From the sequence record PV611058: DNA of 64,000 bases; one strand, 5' to 3'. Positions 16,633 through 20,758 of the stretch are shown here, one piece after another. Origin of the DNA: Escherichia phage WPEC3. Within the stretch, counting starts at the first letter, position 1, and every line of letters starts with the position of its first letter. Both the position numbers and the translations under genes were made by a program. The notes below the pieces were generated by a model, which did no database searches, was not told where the DNA came from, and saw only the letters and a list, made by a program, of their open reading frames with translations.

Positions 16633-17286
16633 TTATTTTGCTTTACGTTCTGCAAATGCCTGTTTAACTTTCTCAATTGCTTTGGTTTGTGAAATTCCTT
16701 CTGGGATTTCAATATAGAAAGTTTTGCTATCAGGTGCTACAGGTGTTGCTTGAACTTGTGGACGTAGAGATGGTTCTAAGTTGTAAGCACGTTCAAAGTG
16801 CTCTTTAGCCAACTGCTCATAACGTTGTGCATCTTTAAGTAGTTGCTCAACAATGGTAGCTTCTTCAACAGAAGTATCAACTTCTTGTGGCTTGAATGGG
16901 TTGTATTCTTTAACTTTACCATCTTCATGTTTTTTAGCATCATTATCATTGATTGCGTTGTTTAGAACATCAAGAGAAATCTTACTGTTTCCACCAACAT
17001 GCATATCAATATCACAAGTACGTGCACGACGCAAATGTTGTAGATTATGAAGAACATCTAGCATTTTGCGACCGTCTAGATGACCAATCTTATGCATAAC
17101 TTCCCACAAATCTACATTCGATTGACCTTGATTCATTACTAAATCTGCAACAGATTGAGCATATGCTTCAGGAAGTGAATCGCGATAAACAATGAGACAA
17201 TGTTCTGGATCATCAGGGAGTGAACGCCATACCACAAATACTCGTGAACCCGTATTACGTACTACACCAACGTGACGAATAGCCAT
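16633..17286 (-). CDS. hypothetical protein
   Basis: 217 aa ORF, co-directional and tightly packed in the operon with the AAA+/VWA genes. Confidence 0.45.
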   Translation of the reverse strand: MAIRHVGVVRNTGSRVFVVWRSLPDDPEHCLIVYRDSLPEAYAQSVADLVMNQGQSNVDLWEVMHKIGHLDGRKMLDVLHNLQHLRRARTCDIDMHVGGNSKISLDVLNNAINDNDAKKHEDGKVKEYNPFKPQEVDTSVEEATIVEQLLKDAQRYEQLAKEHFERAYNLEPSLRPQVQATPVAPDSKTFYIEIPEGISQTKAIEKVKQAFAERKAK

Positions 17287-17288
17287 TA

Positions 17289-17618
17289 TTATTCTCCTTT
17301 ATTTTGTTCAGCAGCAGCTTGTGCAGCATCAGCTTCTTCTTGTGCTTTGATATCTTCGAGTGCAGAGTTGGCAAACTCAACAAACTTAGATACGACTGGA
17401 GCAACATCAACAAGTTCTTCGACTTTAAATGAATTACGAGCCACAGCAGCTTCCATGATTTTAGCAGCGTTGATTAGGTCGATTAGTGTTAGTTGAATTT
17501 TTTCTGGTTCTTGTTCCATTTTAATACTCTCCATGTATGTTGTTACAAATATAATTATATCACCTTTTTCCAAGCTGTCCCGCTGAAAAAAGTAGAGAAC
17601 GGAATTTTCCGTTCTCAT
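17289..17618 (-). CDS. hypothetical protein (acidic, helical)
   Basis: 109 aa ORF immediately downstream of the VWA gene. Confidence 0.4.
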   Translation of the reverse strand: MRTENSVLYFFQRDSLEKGDIIIFVTTYMESIKMEQEPEKIQLTLIDLINAAKIMEAAVARNSFKVEELVDVAPVVSKFVEFANSALEDIKAQEEADAAQAAAEQNKGE

Positions 17619-17628
17619 TATTTAGTAC

Positions 17629-19038
17629 TTAGCTACGTTGACGCTTTTTGTCAGCTTCATATTCGTAGTGTACAGTTTCGCCAAATGGTGCTTGTTTGTT
17701 AGGATTACTGTGGATAACAAACAGTGTCTTACAGTAATCAGGATCACCCCATGACTGCCACGGCTCACCATCGGTAAACATAATAAGCTGTTTAGGCTTA
17801 TAGTTGTCATGCTTCATATGAACCCATACTGCTTCAAAGTCAGTACCACCACCACCTTTCACTGGATATTCGAGAATCTTACTCTCTTCACCAGTTTTGT
17901 AATCTTTCACAGTATAAACTTCAGTATCGAACGTCATGATACGGATTTTAAATTGTTTAAACTGCTTAGTGATACCCAGTACTTCACTGATGAAATCACG
18001 GAGCATATCTTCAGAGATAGAACCGGATGCATCTAGTGCAATTGCAATATCAATATCATCATCTGGTTTCATACCAGGGAAGATTGGATTCCCGTAGAAT
18101 GAACCAGAACTACCAAAACCAGCACCCCATGAACGACGATTAGGATTTTGATAAGTTGCATCAGACTTCAACCAGCTACGTAGTGTGCGGTGAAGTTTAG
18201 AACGCCAGTCAATCTTAGGTTCTTTGAAGTTGTTAATCATACGTGCGATTTCAGCAGGAGTACCACCTGCACGAGCAGCATTCATCATTGCTGTTTTGAA
18301 ATCATCCATATAATCACGTTTTTGTTTATCACTTGAACCACCTTCTTGACCTTCTTGTGGAACGTCATGTTGGTCGATTGTTGTACCTTTGCCTTTACCA
18401 TCTTTGATATCACCAAAAGTACCGCGTGATTTACCTTCACCCTCACCACTACCAGCCTGTGGATTTCCTTCACCTTCTCCGTCTTGGTCCTGCTTATCTT
18501 CTTCTTCGAGAATGTTATAAATCTCTTCAGCAGTCATACCATCGTACTTTTTATCGTACAGCCATTGGCTTTGAATTTTACCAATTTTATCACGAACAAG
18601 AATCTGGTTAATTGCATAGTCAGCAGCACGGTTATAACGCTGCGGGTCACGCATACCACGACGCAAGAAGTGGTCATATGCACAGTGAAGAATTTCATGA
18701 CAAATAACTGCAATCAGGTTTTCATCAGTCAAACCTTCTGTCATTTCTTTAAGTTGTTCTTCAGTTACTTCAGGATGTTTCTCACGAATTGCTTCTTCGT
18801 ATGCTGACTTTTTGGATTGGTCCTGAATACCCATGATGAATTCTACGTTGTAGAATAAATGCTTACCATCTACAGCCAAAGTACGACACCATGTGTTGTT
18901 TGCAACTGGACGCAGACGAGAAGCCAGTACACCAAAGAATGGGAATGTTAGCATTAAAGATGTGCGAGCTAAGATCAGACGATCTTGACATTCTTTCTGG
19001 AGAGCCGGAGTAACATCACTGAAACGTTTATCTGACAT
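17629..19038 (-). CDS. VWA-domain protein with N-terminal HExxH metallopeptidase-like domain (DUF2201-like, CobT-like)
   Basis: HEILHCAYDH (HExxH) in the N-terminal half; MIDAS-type VWA motif DIAIALDASGSIS in the C-terminal half; Gly/Glu-rich linker; partner of the adjacent AAA+ ATPase. Confidence 0.7.
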   Translation of the reverse strand: MSDKRFSDVTPALQKECQDRLILARTSLMLTFPFFGVLASRLRPVANNTWCRTLAVDGKHLFYNVEFIMGIQDQSKKSAYEEAIREKHPEVTEEQLKEMTEGLTDENLIAVICHEILHCAYDHFLRRGMRDPQRYNRAADYAINQILVRDKIGKIQSQWLYDKKYDGMTAEEIYNILEEEDKQDQDGEGEGNPQAGSGEGEGKSRGTFGDIKDGKGKGTTIDQHDVPQEGQEGGSSDKQKRDYMDDFKTAMMNAARAGGTPAEIARMINNFKEPKIDWRSKLHRTLRSWLKSDATYQNPNRRSWGAGFGSSGSFYGNPIFPGMKPDDDIDIAIALDASGSISEDMLRDFISEVLGITKQFKQFKIRIMTFDTEVYTVKDYKTGEESKILEYPVKGGGGTDFEAVWVHMKHDNYKPKQLIMFTDGEPWQSWGDPDYCKTLFVIHSNPNKQAPFGETVHYEYEADKKRQRS

Positions 19039-19059
19039 TTGTATTTCCTCGTTTAGTTA

Positions 19060-19089
19060 AGATAAAAGAAGGATACCATGTGGTATCCT
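19060..19089 (-). terminator. hairpin (attenuator or terminator) between the AAA+ and VWA genes
   Basis: Perfect inverted repeat ggataccatgtggtatcc, followed on the - strand by a T-rich tract. Coordinates approximate. Confidence 0.4.
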
Positions 19090-19113
19090 CCTTGTCAACA
19101 CTCTTTTTAATTA

Positions 19114-20442
19114 TTAACCAAGAGAGCGTGCTTTACGTACTAGGTCAGAGTACTTCATAACGAAGTCTTTAAACGCTGGTACATCTTTAATCGTAATCGC
19201 TACTTTATGAAGCGTGATGGTACGAATCGCCAGTACTGCCAGTTCTGCTTGAGTTGCAGAGAAGTTATGGTCTAGGAAGGTGATGAAGTTGTTGCACAGC
19301 TTACCCCAATCTTCCACTGGTAGACGTTGTTCTTGCTTCTCATTGTAGAGGTCGATAATTTTGTAAACCAGATTCAGAGTGATGAAGTAGTTCGCGGAAA
19401 TATCAAGCGAAGCATCAATCTCTTTAATCTCACCCTGTAGGATGGACATGGTATCTGGTAGTTTAGCTACGTTATCAACATACTCGATGTATTCAGTTGC
19501 TACGCCTTCACCAACACGACCTGCAATCATCGCACGGAACACTTCTTTATCAATGTTCTTAACTTTCTTCAGATCTTCGTAGCGTGCTACTGCTTCCCAT
19601 GAACGTGGAGAAGTACCACCACAGTGAGAAGGATCTTGTGGGCTAAGGGTGTTGAAGTGTTTAGCACCAGTGTTGTTGATGAACGCTACAGTTGCTGGGT
19701 TCAAACGCTTACCAATCGCATAATCGTTAATCCAATCTTGATGATAAGGAATCATTTCGATGTGGGTCATACGGTCACGCAGTGGTGTAGCTAGAGAGAA
19801 CGTTACACCGCCATCAGTTTCACGGTTACCTGCTGCGAGAATCAGTGCAGTCTTAGGTAGCTTCATCTCACCAACACAACGGTCGAGGATTAGCTGATAA
19901 GACGCTGCCTGTACAATCGGCATTGCAGAGTTGATTTCGTCAAACAGAATAACACCTTTCCAATCTGGAGACAGTTTCAGTACTTTAGGTGCTGCCCACA
20001 CAACTGCTGTTTCAGCGATGTAATCTTGTGCACTAGCCAGTTCAGATTCAATCAGTTGCTTACCATCCATATCAAGGAACACTTTCTCTGGAACTGGGAT
20101 ACCACGAAGGTCACTTGGTTCAATCTGAGACAAACGGAAATCGATAAAGTTAGTGTCTTGGTCGATTAGTTTGGCTTCAAACGCTGCCAGTTCACGGCGA
20201 AGTTGATCAGCATTTTCAGTATCAGCTTCGATTTGTTGTTTCATGAACTCAATTTTTGCCACGTTATCTTTACGCAGTGGGTAGTTCTCATCAGCGTATT
20301 GACGTGCGATAGCAGATTTACCGATACCAGGGCTACCCCAAATCATCAGGCTATCTTGAATCATGTCAGCCAGTGCCATTGCTTCTTTAGCTTTCTTAGG
20401 AGTCAGTTTTACGTTCAGGATATCGTTGTTTTGAGTAGACAT
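19114..20442 (-). CDS. MoxR-like AAA+ ATPase (CobS-like)
   Basis: Walker A GSPGIGKSAIA, Walker B ILFDEINSA, 442 aa; paired with the downstream VWA protein. Confidence 0.75.
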   Translation of the reverse strand: MSTQNNDILNVKLTPKKAKEAMALADMIQDSLMIWGSPGIGKSAIARQYADENYPLRKDNVAKIEFMKQQIEADTENADQLRRELAAFEAKLIDQDTNFIDFRLSQIEPSDLRGIPVPEKVFLDMDGKQLIESELASAQDYIAETAVVWAAPKVLKLSPDWKGVILFDEINSAMPIVQAASYQLILDRCVGEMKLPKTALILAAGNRETDGGVTFSLATPLRDRMTHIEMIPYHQDWINDYAIGKRLNPATVAFINNTGAKHFNTLSPQDPSHCGGTSPRSWEAVARYEDLKKVKNIDKEVFRAMIAGRVGEGVATEYIEYVDNVAKLPDTMSILQGEIKEIDASLDISANYFITLNLVYKIIDLYNEKQEQRLPVEDWGKLCNNFITFLDHNFSATQAELAVLAIRTITLHKVAITIKDVPAFKDFVMKYSDLVRKARSLG

Positions 20443-20612
20443 GTATATTTTCCTTTTGTTGGATAAAATCGTTTAGGTTTCTATTATAGCCAATCCGTGG
20501 GCAAAAGTAAAGGAACTGTGTTAAAAGAATTTTTAACTTATCAGTTCCTTTGTTACTTCATGAATCATCCGTGTATTTAAAAAGGCATTTCTCTTTGCCG
20601 TCTTGATGTGGT

Positions 20613-20640
20613 CATTATATCACATCGTTCAGGCTTGTCA
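20613..20640 (-). promoter_or_regulatory. sigma70-type consensus promoter (TTGACA-N16-TGaTATAAT), copy A
   Basis: On the - strand: -35 TTGACA at about 20640-20635 and extended -10 TGATATAAT ending about 20613, with 16 nt spacer; points toward the AAA+/VWA operon. Confidence 0.6.
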
Positions 20641-20705
20641 ACAACTTTTTTATTTCTTTTTCAATCTCACATCTTGTGATTTTGAAAACTTGCTTCGTGG
20701 TGGTC

Positions 20706-20733
20706 ATTATAACACATCATTCGGCGTTGTCAA
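20706..20733 (-). promoter_or_regulatory. sigma70-type consensus promoter (TTGACA-N16-TGtTATAAT), copy B
   Basis: Second copy about 93 bp upstream of copy A, inside a ~55 bp direct repeat; same orientation. Confidence 0.6.
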
Positions 20734-20758
20734 CATCTTTTTTTCTTTATTTTCGAAG

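Follow-up and report, generated by a model that had tools for sequence, protein, structure and literature searches.

In the NorQD system, a finger of the VWA domain of the adaptor enters the pore of the ATPase hexamer, while the MIDAS (an adhesion site that depends on a metal ion) and the N-terminal domain hold the client protein and the adaptor linker is stretched by ATP-driven rotation (PMC13036017). Phages also encode pairs of this kind. Iyer et al. (2021, Viruses 13:63, PMC7824862) described in group 2.2 jumbo phages a chaperone-cochaperone pair consisting of a MoxR AAA+ ATPase and a vWA protein with an N-terminal metallopeptidase. The role that they proposed for it is virion assembly and proteolytic processing, and they cite the MoxR-vWA pair of Acidianus two-tailed virus for the part in virion assembly. 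A cyanophage study assigned phage MoxR genes to the CbbQ/GvpN/NorQ subfamily (PMC9964418). In phage N4, gp24 and gp25 are reported to be middle transcripts (PMC4193335). Here we consider an ATPase-adaptor pair of Escherichia phage WPEC3 (record PV611058), encoded in region 16633-20745 of a stretch of 64,000 nucleotides (nt) that we call the window. Judged by sequence comparison, the pair corresponds to the N4 gp24/gp25 module in the form that jumbo phages have.

A first-pass annotation, made from the sequence alone, had reported an ATPase, an HExxH/VWA protein, two small genes and two promoters in this region. All of these elements are found where it had placed them, on the minus strand, which carries the ATPase gene, the adaptor (DUF2201/VWA) gene and the two small genes throughout. 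Over the full length of the query, region 16633-20745 is 98.9-99.8% identical to nine E. coli jumbo phages (WPEC5, EC.P1, fEgEco12, Ecwhy_1 and others) in megablast comparisons, and it matches the Asteriusvirus phages 121Q, PBECO4 and phAPEC6 at about 85%. For the window, identity to GenBank phages is 99.8-100%. By these matches the source is an Asteriusvirus-type jumbo coliphage. Novelty at the gene level is low, because the features have already been annotated and published: the phage is near-identical to sequenced isolates, and its genes are known.

The ATPase and its adaptor

The ATPase gene (19114-20442, minus strand) encodes the 442-amino acid homologue of N4 gp24 and matches PHROG 1297 with an E-value of 3e-105. 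The Walker A motif, GSPGIGKS, lies at nt 20314-20337, and residues D168/E169 of the Walker B motif, ILFDEIN, at nt 19936-19941. Throughout an alignment of 70 ATPase sequences, G36, G39, K42 and S43 of Walker A and D168/E169 of Walker B are invariant. The same is true of N206 (sensor 1, in AAGN), R224 (the Arg finger, in LRDRM) and P279/R280 (sensor 2, in the SPR motif of the lid, SPRSW).

The Pfam search that had been suggested as a check of the first reading placed DUF2201_N and DUF2201 of the adaptor above their cut-offs, but VWA remained below its own and the ATPase matched neither AAA_5 nor CbbQ_C. The ATPase scores 17.9 with AAA_3, against a cut-off of 27; Mg_chelatase is sub-threshold too, and generic AAA is borderline. 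A scan of NCBIfam returned no relevant match for any of five proteins. Single-sequence searches of the PDB gave no match, and a profile search of the PDB with the ATPase alignment gave Walker A matches only. Pfam AAA_5/AAA_3 are, however, carried by homologues that match over the full length with 31-34% identity (E 1e-52 to 1e-62); AAA_5, with a cut-off of 22, is passed by the homologues from cyanophage S-TIM66 (25.1) and from a Brucella pecoris locus (28.4). The MoxR membership of the WPEC3 ATPase is therefore transitive, since it is these homologues, and not the protein itself, that pass AAA_5.

An AlphaFold2 model of the ATPase has a mean predicted local distance difference test score (pLDDT) of 87 and a predicted template modelling score (pTM) of 0.79. 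It predicts a long beta-hairpin (E115-124/E141-150) between beta2 (99-103) and the Walker B strand (164-168), and a short EE--EE element (189-195) ahead of the sensor 1 strand (200-206). Both beta-hairpin inserts of the helix-2-insert clade are present in the model. When the model was compared with the PDB by Foldseek, NorQ chains made up 14 of the 16 best matches, ranks 1-14 included, and CbbQ2 came at rank 18. The NorQ matches comprise NorQ hexamers as well as NorQ-NorD complexes, and RuvBL, McrB and the sigma54 activators rank below NorQ and CbbQ2. Compared with relatives of 330-400 amino acids, the ATPase has a clade-specific helical hairpin insert (residues ~54-95) and a C-terminal helical extension. 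It belongs to the MoxR class of AAA+ proteins as a divergent member akin to CbbQ and NorQ, for which hexamer formation and ATP hydrolysis are predicted by analogy. The label MoxR-like, given at first sight, is thus upheld by motifs, fold, homologues and the pairing with a VWA protein, although the protein itself stays below every MoxR-type threshold of Pfam.

The adaptor, a 469-amino acid homologue of N4 gp25, is encoded at 17629-19038 (minus strand). In Pfam it matches DUF2201_N (E 3e-36, 125.8 bits against a cut-off of 23.2) and then DUF2201 (E 1e-21, 77.8 bits against 26.4), in this order, while the VWA match (E 5e-4) falls under its cut-off. Together with the motifs HEILHCAYDH and DASGS, the two DUF2201 matches confirm that an HExxH domain and a VWA domain with a MIDAS are fused in one protein, as had been read from the sequence. 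The N-terminal zincin-like domain covers residues ~10-190 (nt 18469-19011, minus strand), with HEILH at nt 18685-18699. It is followed by a low-complexity Gly/Glu/Gln linker (residues ~189-232) and then a helical region. The C-terminal part is a minimal VWA domain of ~135 amino acids (residues ~326-460, nt 17659-18063, minus strand), whose MIDAS sequence DASGS lies at nt 18019-18033; the adaptor has the MIDAS pattern DxSxS...T...D on a VWA (Rossmann-like) fold. In the AlphaFold2 model of the adaptor, the N-domain is helical, residues 189-232 and 292-325 are disordered, and the alpha/beta domain at the C-terminus is compact.

The residues of both sites are strongly conserved. H114, E115, H118, D336, S338, G339, S340, T399 and D423 are unchanged in 38 adaptor homologues with identities down to 42%. 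In 22 much more distant homologues (among them the LUZ7 gp25-like protein, cyanophage and megaphage proteins, and sequences on contigs attributed to alphaproteobacteria, Saccharibacteria and further bacterial groups), H114, E115, H118, H123, R126, N136, D140 and N144 are invariant. Loss of the HExxH and MIDAS residues from homologues had been named in advance as grounds for giving up the first interpretation; both sets turned out to be invariant. A profile of the N-domain gives weak but coherent matches to the M48 peptidase 3c37 (E 1.3e-3), the minigluzincin MJ1213 (E 5e-3), BepA, HtpX and Ste24, which span the edge strand and the HExxH helix only. Fold searches with the adaptor returned VWA matches only. 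From these sequence features the N-domain is taken to be zincin-like, with an intact HExxH...H site, and peptidase activity is predicted.

The adaptor family is large. A database search scored 8,000 candidates, among which at least 2,787 are adaptor homologues. With a family profile, 24,713 of 1.84 billion cluster representatives were retrieved at E<=1e-3, and 6,556 at E<=1e-30; thousands of the matching representatives are from metagenomes. The name "HNH endonuclease", attached to PHROG 1314 and to many GenBank records, was considered and rejected as a propagated misannotation, Pfam showing DUF2201_N, DUF2201 and VWA only. The 121Q record calls the adaptor "Zn-dependent hydrolase (T4-gp25-like)"; here gp25 refers to phage N4, not T4. 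The searchable literature holds no functional work on DUF2201, COG3864 or sll7028/sll7029.

In a tblastn search of 50,697 phage records, 808 matched the ATPase and 724 the adaptor, and the counts per taxon agree. The carriers include N4-like podoviruses (every one sampled has the pair), rV5-like, PVP-SE1-like and PA5oct-like myoviruses, T4-like cyanophages, Campylobacter phages and others. Across genera the pair is 58-60% identical. Linkage is similarly regular: in 32 of 36 genome-collection loci an ATPase homologue lies ~0.1-2.5 kb upstream of the DUF2201 gene on the same strand, and the other four loci are contigs that are short or cut off. In LUZ7, S-TIM66, RaK2-like phages, an Erwinia phage, GAP32 and a 480-kb metagenomic contig that looks like a megaphage, the two genes are direct or near neighbours. 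The exception among the phage loci inspected is the rV5-like group, in which the genes are ~5 kb apart. The locus of the Brucella pecoris isolate has phage-like content, consisting mostly of genes that lack a Pfam match, with a DNA ligase and a beta clamp adjoining the pair. Labels already in use point in the same direction, "N4 gp24-like" and "N4 gp25-like" being found in LUZ7, K64-1 and phAPEC6, the last of which adds "MoxR ATPase".

Promoters, hairpins and timing of expression

Two host-type promoters precede the ATPase gene on the minus strand. P1 (20706-20733) is TTGACA-16-TATAAT, and P2 (20614-20641), 92 nt downstream of P1, is TTGACA-16-TGaTATAAT. Each is a 12/12 match with the TG of an extended -10 element at -15/-14, and A-rich UP-like tracts lie upstream of both (~20734-20755 for P1, ~20642-20663 for P2). 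The description of these sites as near-perfect was, if anything, cautious: both are perfect extended -10 sigma70 sites. They are the sole perfect matches in the 64 kb, and none of 100 dinucleotide-preserving shuffles gave one. In 121Q, the counterpart of P1 is TTGACA-16-TACAAT and the P2 hexamers are identical, the P1-P2 stretch as a whole being 74% identical; Klebsiella phage KP13-7 has a promoter related to P2. P2 looks like a diverged tandem copy of P1. Promoter sequences of this host type do indicate transcription by the unmodified host RNA polymerase.

Between P2 and the ATPase gene stands a terminator-like hairpin, AAGGAACUG...CAGUUCCUU then UUACUUUUG, at 20510-20550 with a U-run tail to 20501 (minus strand; folding energy -13.8 kcal/mol, z -3.7). 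Asteriusvirus, Alcyoneusvirus, Eneladusvirus and Mimasvirus all have a hairpin followed by a U-run in this place. Comparison of the stems by eye shows that they vary between these four genera by paired changes (A-U to C-G, G-C to A-U), and all four keep the order of promoter, hairpin and U-run, ~60 nt and ATG. The leader (20443-20606, minus strand) is 93% identical to that of 121Q, the hairpin 94% and the 57 nt from hairpin to ATG 97%, against 77% at the third codon positions of the ATPase gene, which argues that the leader is under constraint. The hairpin probably doubles as the terminator of the upstream late structural operon. The leader itself could attenuate transcription, give a small RNA of ~105 or 197 nt, or bind a protein. 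When region 15000-23000 was scanned with Rfam, no family was found in the leader, and the matches were sub-threshold ones on terminators only. The idea of a leader peptide was abandoned, the 11-codon leader open reading frame (ORF) being absent from KP13-7; the first small hairpin of the predicted leader fold is not kept in 121Q. Directly past the leader hairpin there is a weak proximal promoter-like site, TTTACT-17-TATAAT (20483-20511, minus strand; 10/12 match), which in KP13-7 is TTTACT-17-TATCAT. This site is a candidate for the true promoter of the ATPase gene.

Two further hairpins interrupt the gene series. The first, a 12-bp stem then UUCUUUUAUCUU, lies between the ATPase and adaptor genes (19056-19093, minus strand; -19.2 kcal/mol, z -4.3). 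Its place between the two genes is taken by a hairpin with a U-run in 121Q, KP13-7, Erwinia phage pEa_SNUABM_50 and GAP32 too, which represent four genera. The conservation is positional rather than sequence-based, because the stems of the Erwinia phage and GAP32 are unrelated. This intercistronic hairpin may act as an attenuator, giving more ATPase than adaptor. The other, a 9-bp stem then UACUUUUUUC, follows the adaptor gene (17595-17616, minus strand; -14.2 kcal/mol, z -5.9) and is itself followed by an extended -10 promoter-like site, GGGACA-16-TGaTATAAT (17554-17581, minus strand), which stands separately before the two small genes. The record of phage G17 annotates the leader hairpin and the post-adaptor hairpin as terminators. 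The operon behind tandem promoters that had been envisaged therefore keeps its promoters and its gene order, but it is broken by three terminator-like hairpins and a separate promoter, and its two small genes are lineage-specific.

As to timing, the sequence ATAAATA has been proposed as the late motif of phages CBB and GAP32 (PMC5259590). The window contains 8 copies where ~40 are expected (2 against ~17 on the plus strand, 6 against ~24 on the minus strand). The six minus-strand copies, at 59189, 31964, 28898, 28061, 25188 and 24666, all sit 28-50 nt upstream of gene starts, namely those of the tail sheath, two tail tube and virion proteins and of an 898-amino acid protein. The motif thus behaves like the CBB/GAP32 late-promoter motif, with what appears to be selection against stray copies. 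The T4 late motif, TATAAATA, for which 6-7 copies are expected, is absent from the window. No ATAAATA precedes the ATPase-adaptor pair, which is for this reason set apart by promoter type from its late neighbours; a late structural operon that ends at the leader hairpin would start from the closest copy upstream (24666). The LUZ7 pair is encoded on the early/middle strand, next to the genes for helicase and DNA polymerase, and the late genes are on the other strand. Because ATAAATA is missing ahead of the pair and its N4 homologues belong to the middle genes, pre-late expression is plausible and is the best reading of these sequence signals. The strong immediate-early expression suggested earlier agrees with this in its sigma70 promoters and in the pre-late timing. 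Immediate-early strength, however, is unsupported, because transcripts from P1 and P2 must first pass the putative terminator.

Perfect extended -10 elements (TGnTATAAT) are unevenly distributed in the window, with 12 copies on the minus strand (59541, 47186, 43784, 41464, 36568, 36503, 32961, 26366, 23026, 20714, 20622 and 17562) and 2 on the plus strand. Several of these sites have a GGGACA-like -35 and lie directly upstream of small genes; they may form a second host-type promoter class. The "TGAAACG" promoter class of CBB and GAP32, tied in the CBB paper to DNA-synthesis genes (PMC5259590), is absent from the window. In Erwinia phage pEa_SNUABM_50 and in GAP32, a -35 element of this type, TGAAAC(G), stands before the orthologue of the leader.

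Possible functions of the pair

The explanation that we favour, tentatively and with a probability of roughly 40%, is a modified form of the proposal by Iyer et al., namely that the pair acts on particle components encoded by the phage, both as their chaperone and as the protease that processes them. If it works as NorQ-NorD and CbbQ-CbbO do, one adaptor would dock on the ATPase hexamer, the MIDAS metal would grip an acidic side chain of the client protein, and an ATP-driven pull or twist on the adaptor linker would remodel the client. The client would be brought to the zincin site, or the zincin site unmasked, and cleavage would then occur. The intercistronic hairpin would keep adaptor transcripts below ATPase transcripts, an effect that fits a many-to-one ATPase:adaptor complex. 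The pair would be made before the bulk of the late genes and would target pre-assembly or internal proteins, not host proteins.

Gene neighbourhoods and one proteomic study are consistent with such a role. Virion genes flank the pair in all Rak2-like genera. In S-TIM66 it adjoins genes for Hsp20 and a virion protein, and in the megaphage contig it lies 1.3 kb upstream of genes for a ClpP-like protease and the Gp23 capsid protein. In roseophage RPP1, virion-protein genes are found near the gp24/25 homologues, and mid-infection expression of the module has been suggested by the authors. Purified by caesium chloride centrifugation, phAPEC6 virions contained the ATPase orthologue gp265c (6 peptides, 19% coverage; PMC7247149).

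Several points weigh against this proposal. The same phAPEC6 virion list includes thymidylate synthase (ThyA, 3 peptides), a topoisomerase subunit and the single-stranded DNA-binding protein (PMC7247149), so the ATPase in the virions may be abundant carry-over. The adaptor was not detected in phAPEC6 virions, although finding the ATPase without it would fit a sub-stoichiometric adaptor. Pre-late, sigma70-driven expression would be atypical of morphogenesis factors, and so would replication-gene neighbours, such as the helicase and DNA polymerase of LUZ7 or the DNA ligase and beta clamp of the Brucella pecoris locus. No common structural client is obvious, because the particles of the carriers (podoviruses, myoviruses, jumbo phages) differ. 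The adaptor model is of medium confidence (pLDDT 75, pTM 0.57). Peptidase activity, complex formation, stoichiometry and terminator function are themselves inferred. The searchable literature contains no experimental study of any gp24/gp25 family member, which bears out the earlier statement that the function of the pair in phages is undefined.

Expression from two consensus sigma70 promoters with UP-like tracts, the lack of a late motif and the middle timing of the N4 homologues are also what one would expect of an early effector directed at the host. It would be a MIDAS-guided, ATP-driven protease that, soon after infection, removes or cleaves a conserved protein or complex of the host, for instance a factor of defence, the nucleoid, transcription or proteostasis. 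The occurrence of the pair in phages of many bacterial phyla is compatible with this idea, and makes a universally conserved host protein a consistent client. We nevertheless regard it as unlikely. Counter-defence genes are usually patchy and fast-evolving, whereas the pair is well conserved across genera, runs through the sampled N4-like phages and is found in many other virulent lineages. At E<=0.01, PADLOC matches none of five proteins, and the searchable literature is without an anti-defence report for a phage MoxR pair. In addition, a terminator-like hairpin stands between the strong promoters and the ATPase gene, and the ATPase orthologue is found in virions. The original suggestion of a host-takeover or counter-defence module is left unsupported on similar grounds, the widespread, slow-evolving pair having no PADLOC match and lying among replication, nucleotide-metabolism or virion genes. 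A narrower version, an ATP-gated and MIDAS-targeted protease made ahead of the late genes to cut or extract one host protein that is conserved universally, with the leader as an RNA timer or a controlling small RNA, would be improbable; if true, the presence of the pair in ~1.5% of sequenced phage records and in every N4-like phage sampled would make it a general host-takeover device.

The closest structural matches invite a different comparison. NorQD inserts iron and CbbQO reactivates Rubisco, and the layout of the adaptor mirrors that of NorD. The pair might likewise act on a phage metallo-enzyme that serves nucleotide or DNA metabolism, maturing or reactivating it, with HExxH...H holding a metal and not cutting. 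Genes for thymidylate synthase (ThyA or ThyX), dCMP deaminase and replication proteins do recur nearby in several lineages; yet the pair was not seen to share its occurrence with any single metallo-enzyme, and the neighbourhood may simply be the middle-gene region. Since, moreover, the catalytic Glu of HExxH is invariant and the N-domain resembles M48/minigluzincin peptidases, we give this activase role little credence. Least probable of all, and by our estimate very doubtful, is a function in the replication phase, in which the motor and the protease would free the template for phage replication by stripping off or degrading proteins that are bound or cross-linked to DNA, like Wss1/Spartan with Cdc48. 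The HExxHxxxxH of the adaptor, which we take to be superficially WLM/SprT-like, goes with this view, as do the position of the pair beside the LUZ7 and Brucella pecoris replication genes and its middle timing in N4. The profile search, however, favours M48/minigluzincin and not SprT or WLM, the Pfam scan detects no DNA-binding domain, and the idea is pure conjecture. We accordingly rank maturation of particle components first, a host-directed action second, enzyme activation third and clearance of DNA-bound proteins fourth.

The question matters because the pair is one of the more widespread phage modules without a tested function. If its client were named, a conserved step of the lytic cycle would be explained. 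The MoxR-VWA machines known so far insert metals or reactivate enzymes, and a protease-coupled variant would then be added to them.

Neighbouring genes and comparison with known systems

The two small genes downstream of the adaptor gene are neighbours of the conserved module and not members of it, because they are confined to Rak2/PA5oct-like phages. One encodes a small acidic protein (17289-17534, minus strand; PHROG 13789) found in 71 records, from Rak2-like phages only. Its listed ORF has 109 codons (17289-17618), but the PHROG match begins only with residue 29, and ahead of the second ATG there is a GGAGAG Shine-Dalgarno sequence. The true start is probably M29 or M34, that is 17289-17534 or 17289-17519, giving a protein of 76-81 amino acids. 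The other gene (16633-17286, minus strand; PHROG 15894) encodes a lineage-specific protein of 217 amino acids and occurs in 85 phage records of the Rak2/PA5oct lineage. Its orthologue gp262c was detected by one peptide in phAPEC6 virions (PMC7247149). The orthologues of non-structural products of the block made up of 15105-16034 (thymidylate synthase), 16633-17286 and 19114-20442 are thus packaged in, or co-purify with, phAPEC6 particles.

Between the 217-amino acid gene and the thymidylate synthase gene lies a gene for a 198-amino acid protein (16031-16627, minus strand) assigned to PHROG 768 ("DprA-like"), with a weak match to the SLOG-family Pfam model YAcAr. The protein may process nucleotides, as an enzyme coupled to ThyA. 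A bidirectional terminator (15067-15157) separates the thymidylate synthase gene from a convergent structural gene of 654 codons. The Rfam family sraA matches this element sub-threshold on both strands (43 and 36 bits, where the gathering score is 56), most likely as a hairpin artefact. On the other side of the pair, the late structural operon is headed by a gene for a 181-amino acid protein (24071-24616, minus strand) whose PHROG 16152 label, "Hsp70 heat shock protein", is doubtful, the protein being far too short for an Hsp70.

Among the described MoxR-VWA machines, CobS/CobT had been brought up for comparison with the pair. Membership of the CobS/CobT or BchI/BchD groups was rejected: the Pfam scan reveals no CobT, CobT_C or Mg_chelatase domain at threshold, and no CobT-type domain at E<=0.01. 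A large third subunit of the CobN/BchH kind is likewise absent from the ~14-24 kb neighbourhood examined. Acidianus two-tailed virus offers, by description, a likeness of another sort, in that its virus-encoded MoxR-VWA pair is tied to particle morphogenesis (tail development outside the host). Unlike the WPEC3 pair, however, that pair has no peptidase domain and belongs to an archaeal virus.

The ATPase model finds its best structural counterparts in NorQ and CbbQ (E 1e-7, target TM ~0.6), at a sequence identity of 11-15% only. NorD and CbbO resemble the adaptor in having a C-terminal VWA domain with a DxSxS-T-D MIDAS, a linker and an N-terminal effector domain. The differences are nonetheless clear. 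The WPEC3 ATPase lacks CbbQ_C; of the adaptors compared, that of WPEC3 alone has a zincin-like N-domain, and its VWA domain is minimal (~135 amino acids) with no confident "finger".

The N4 gp24/gp25 homologues share homology with the WPEC3 pair along the greater part of each protein (tblastn E 1e-16 to 1e-40), and their genes are linked alike. The gp25-like protein of LUZ7 and the partner protein of S-TIM66 have the same DUF2201_N plus DUF2201 architecture. Relative to its N4-like counterparts, the WPEC3 ATPase is ~60-100 amino acids longer and below the Pfam AAA_5 threshold, and the adaptor has a ~38-amino acid insert before the HExxH helix as well as the long Gly/Glu/Gln linker. The promoter sequences further suggest that the WPEC3 pair is transcribed by the host RNA polymerase from sigma70 promoters, and not by N4 RNAPII. 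There is also a correspondence, again by description, to the pair of Iyer et al., whose account of a vWA protein with an N-terminal metallopeptidase in a T4-related jumbo myovirus fits the WPEC3 pair exactly. That account comes without analysis of promoters, terminators or timing and without experiment. It is here, in regulation, that the window makes useful if modest additions, in the form of promoters that appear to face a terminator, a putative attenuating hairpin between the two genes, and a pair that would be transcriptionally separate from the neighbouring late structural operon.

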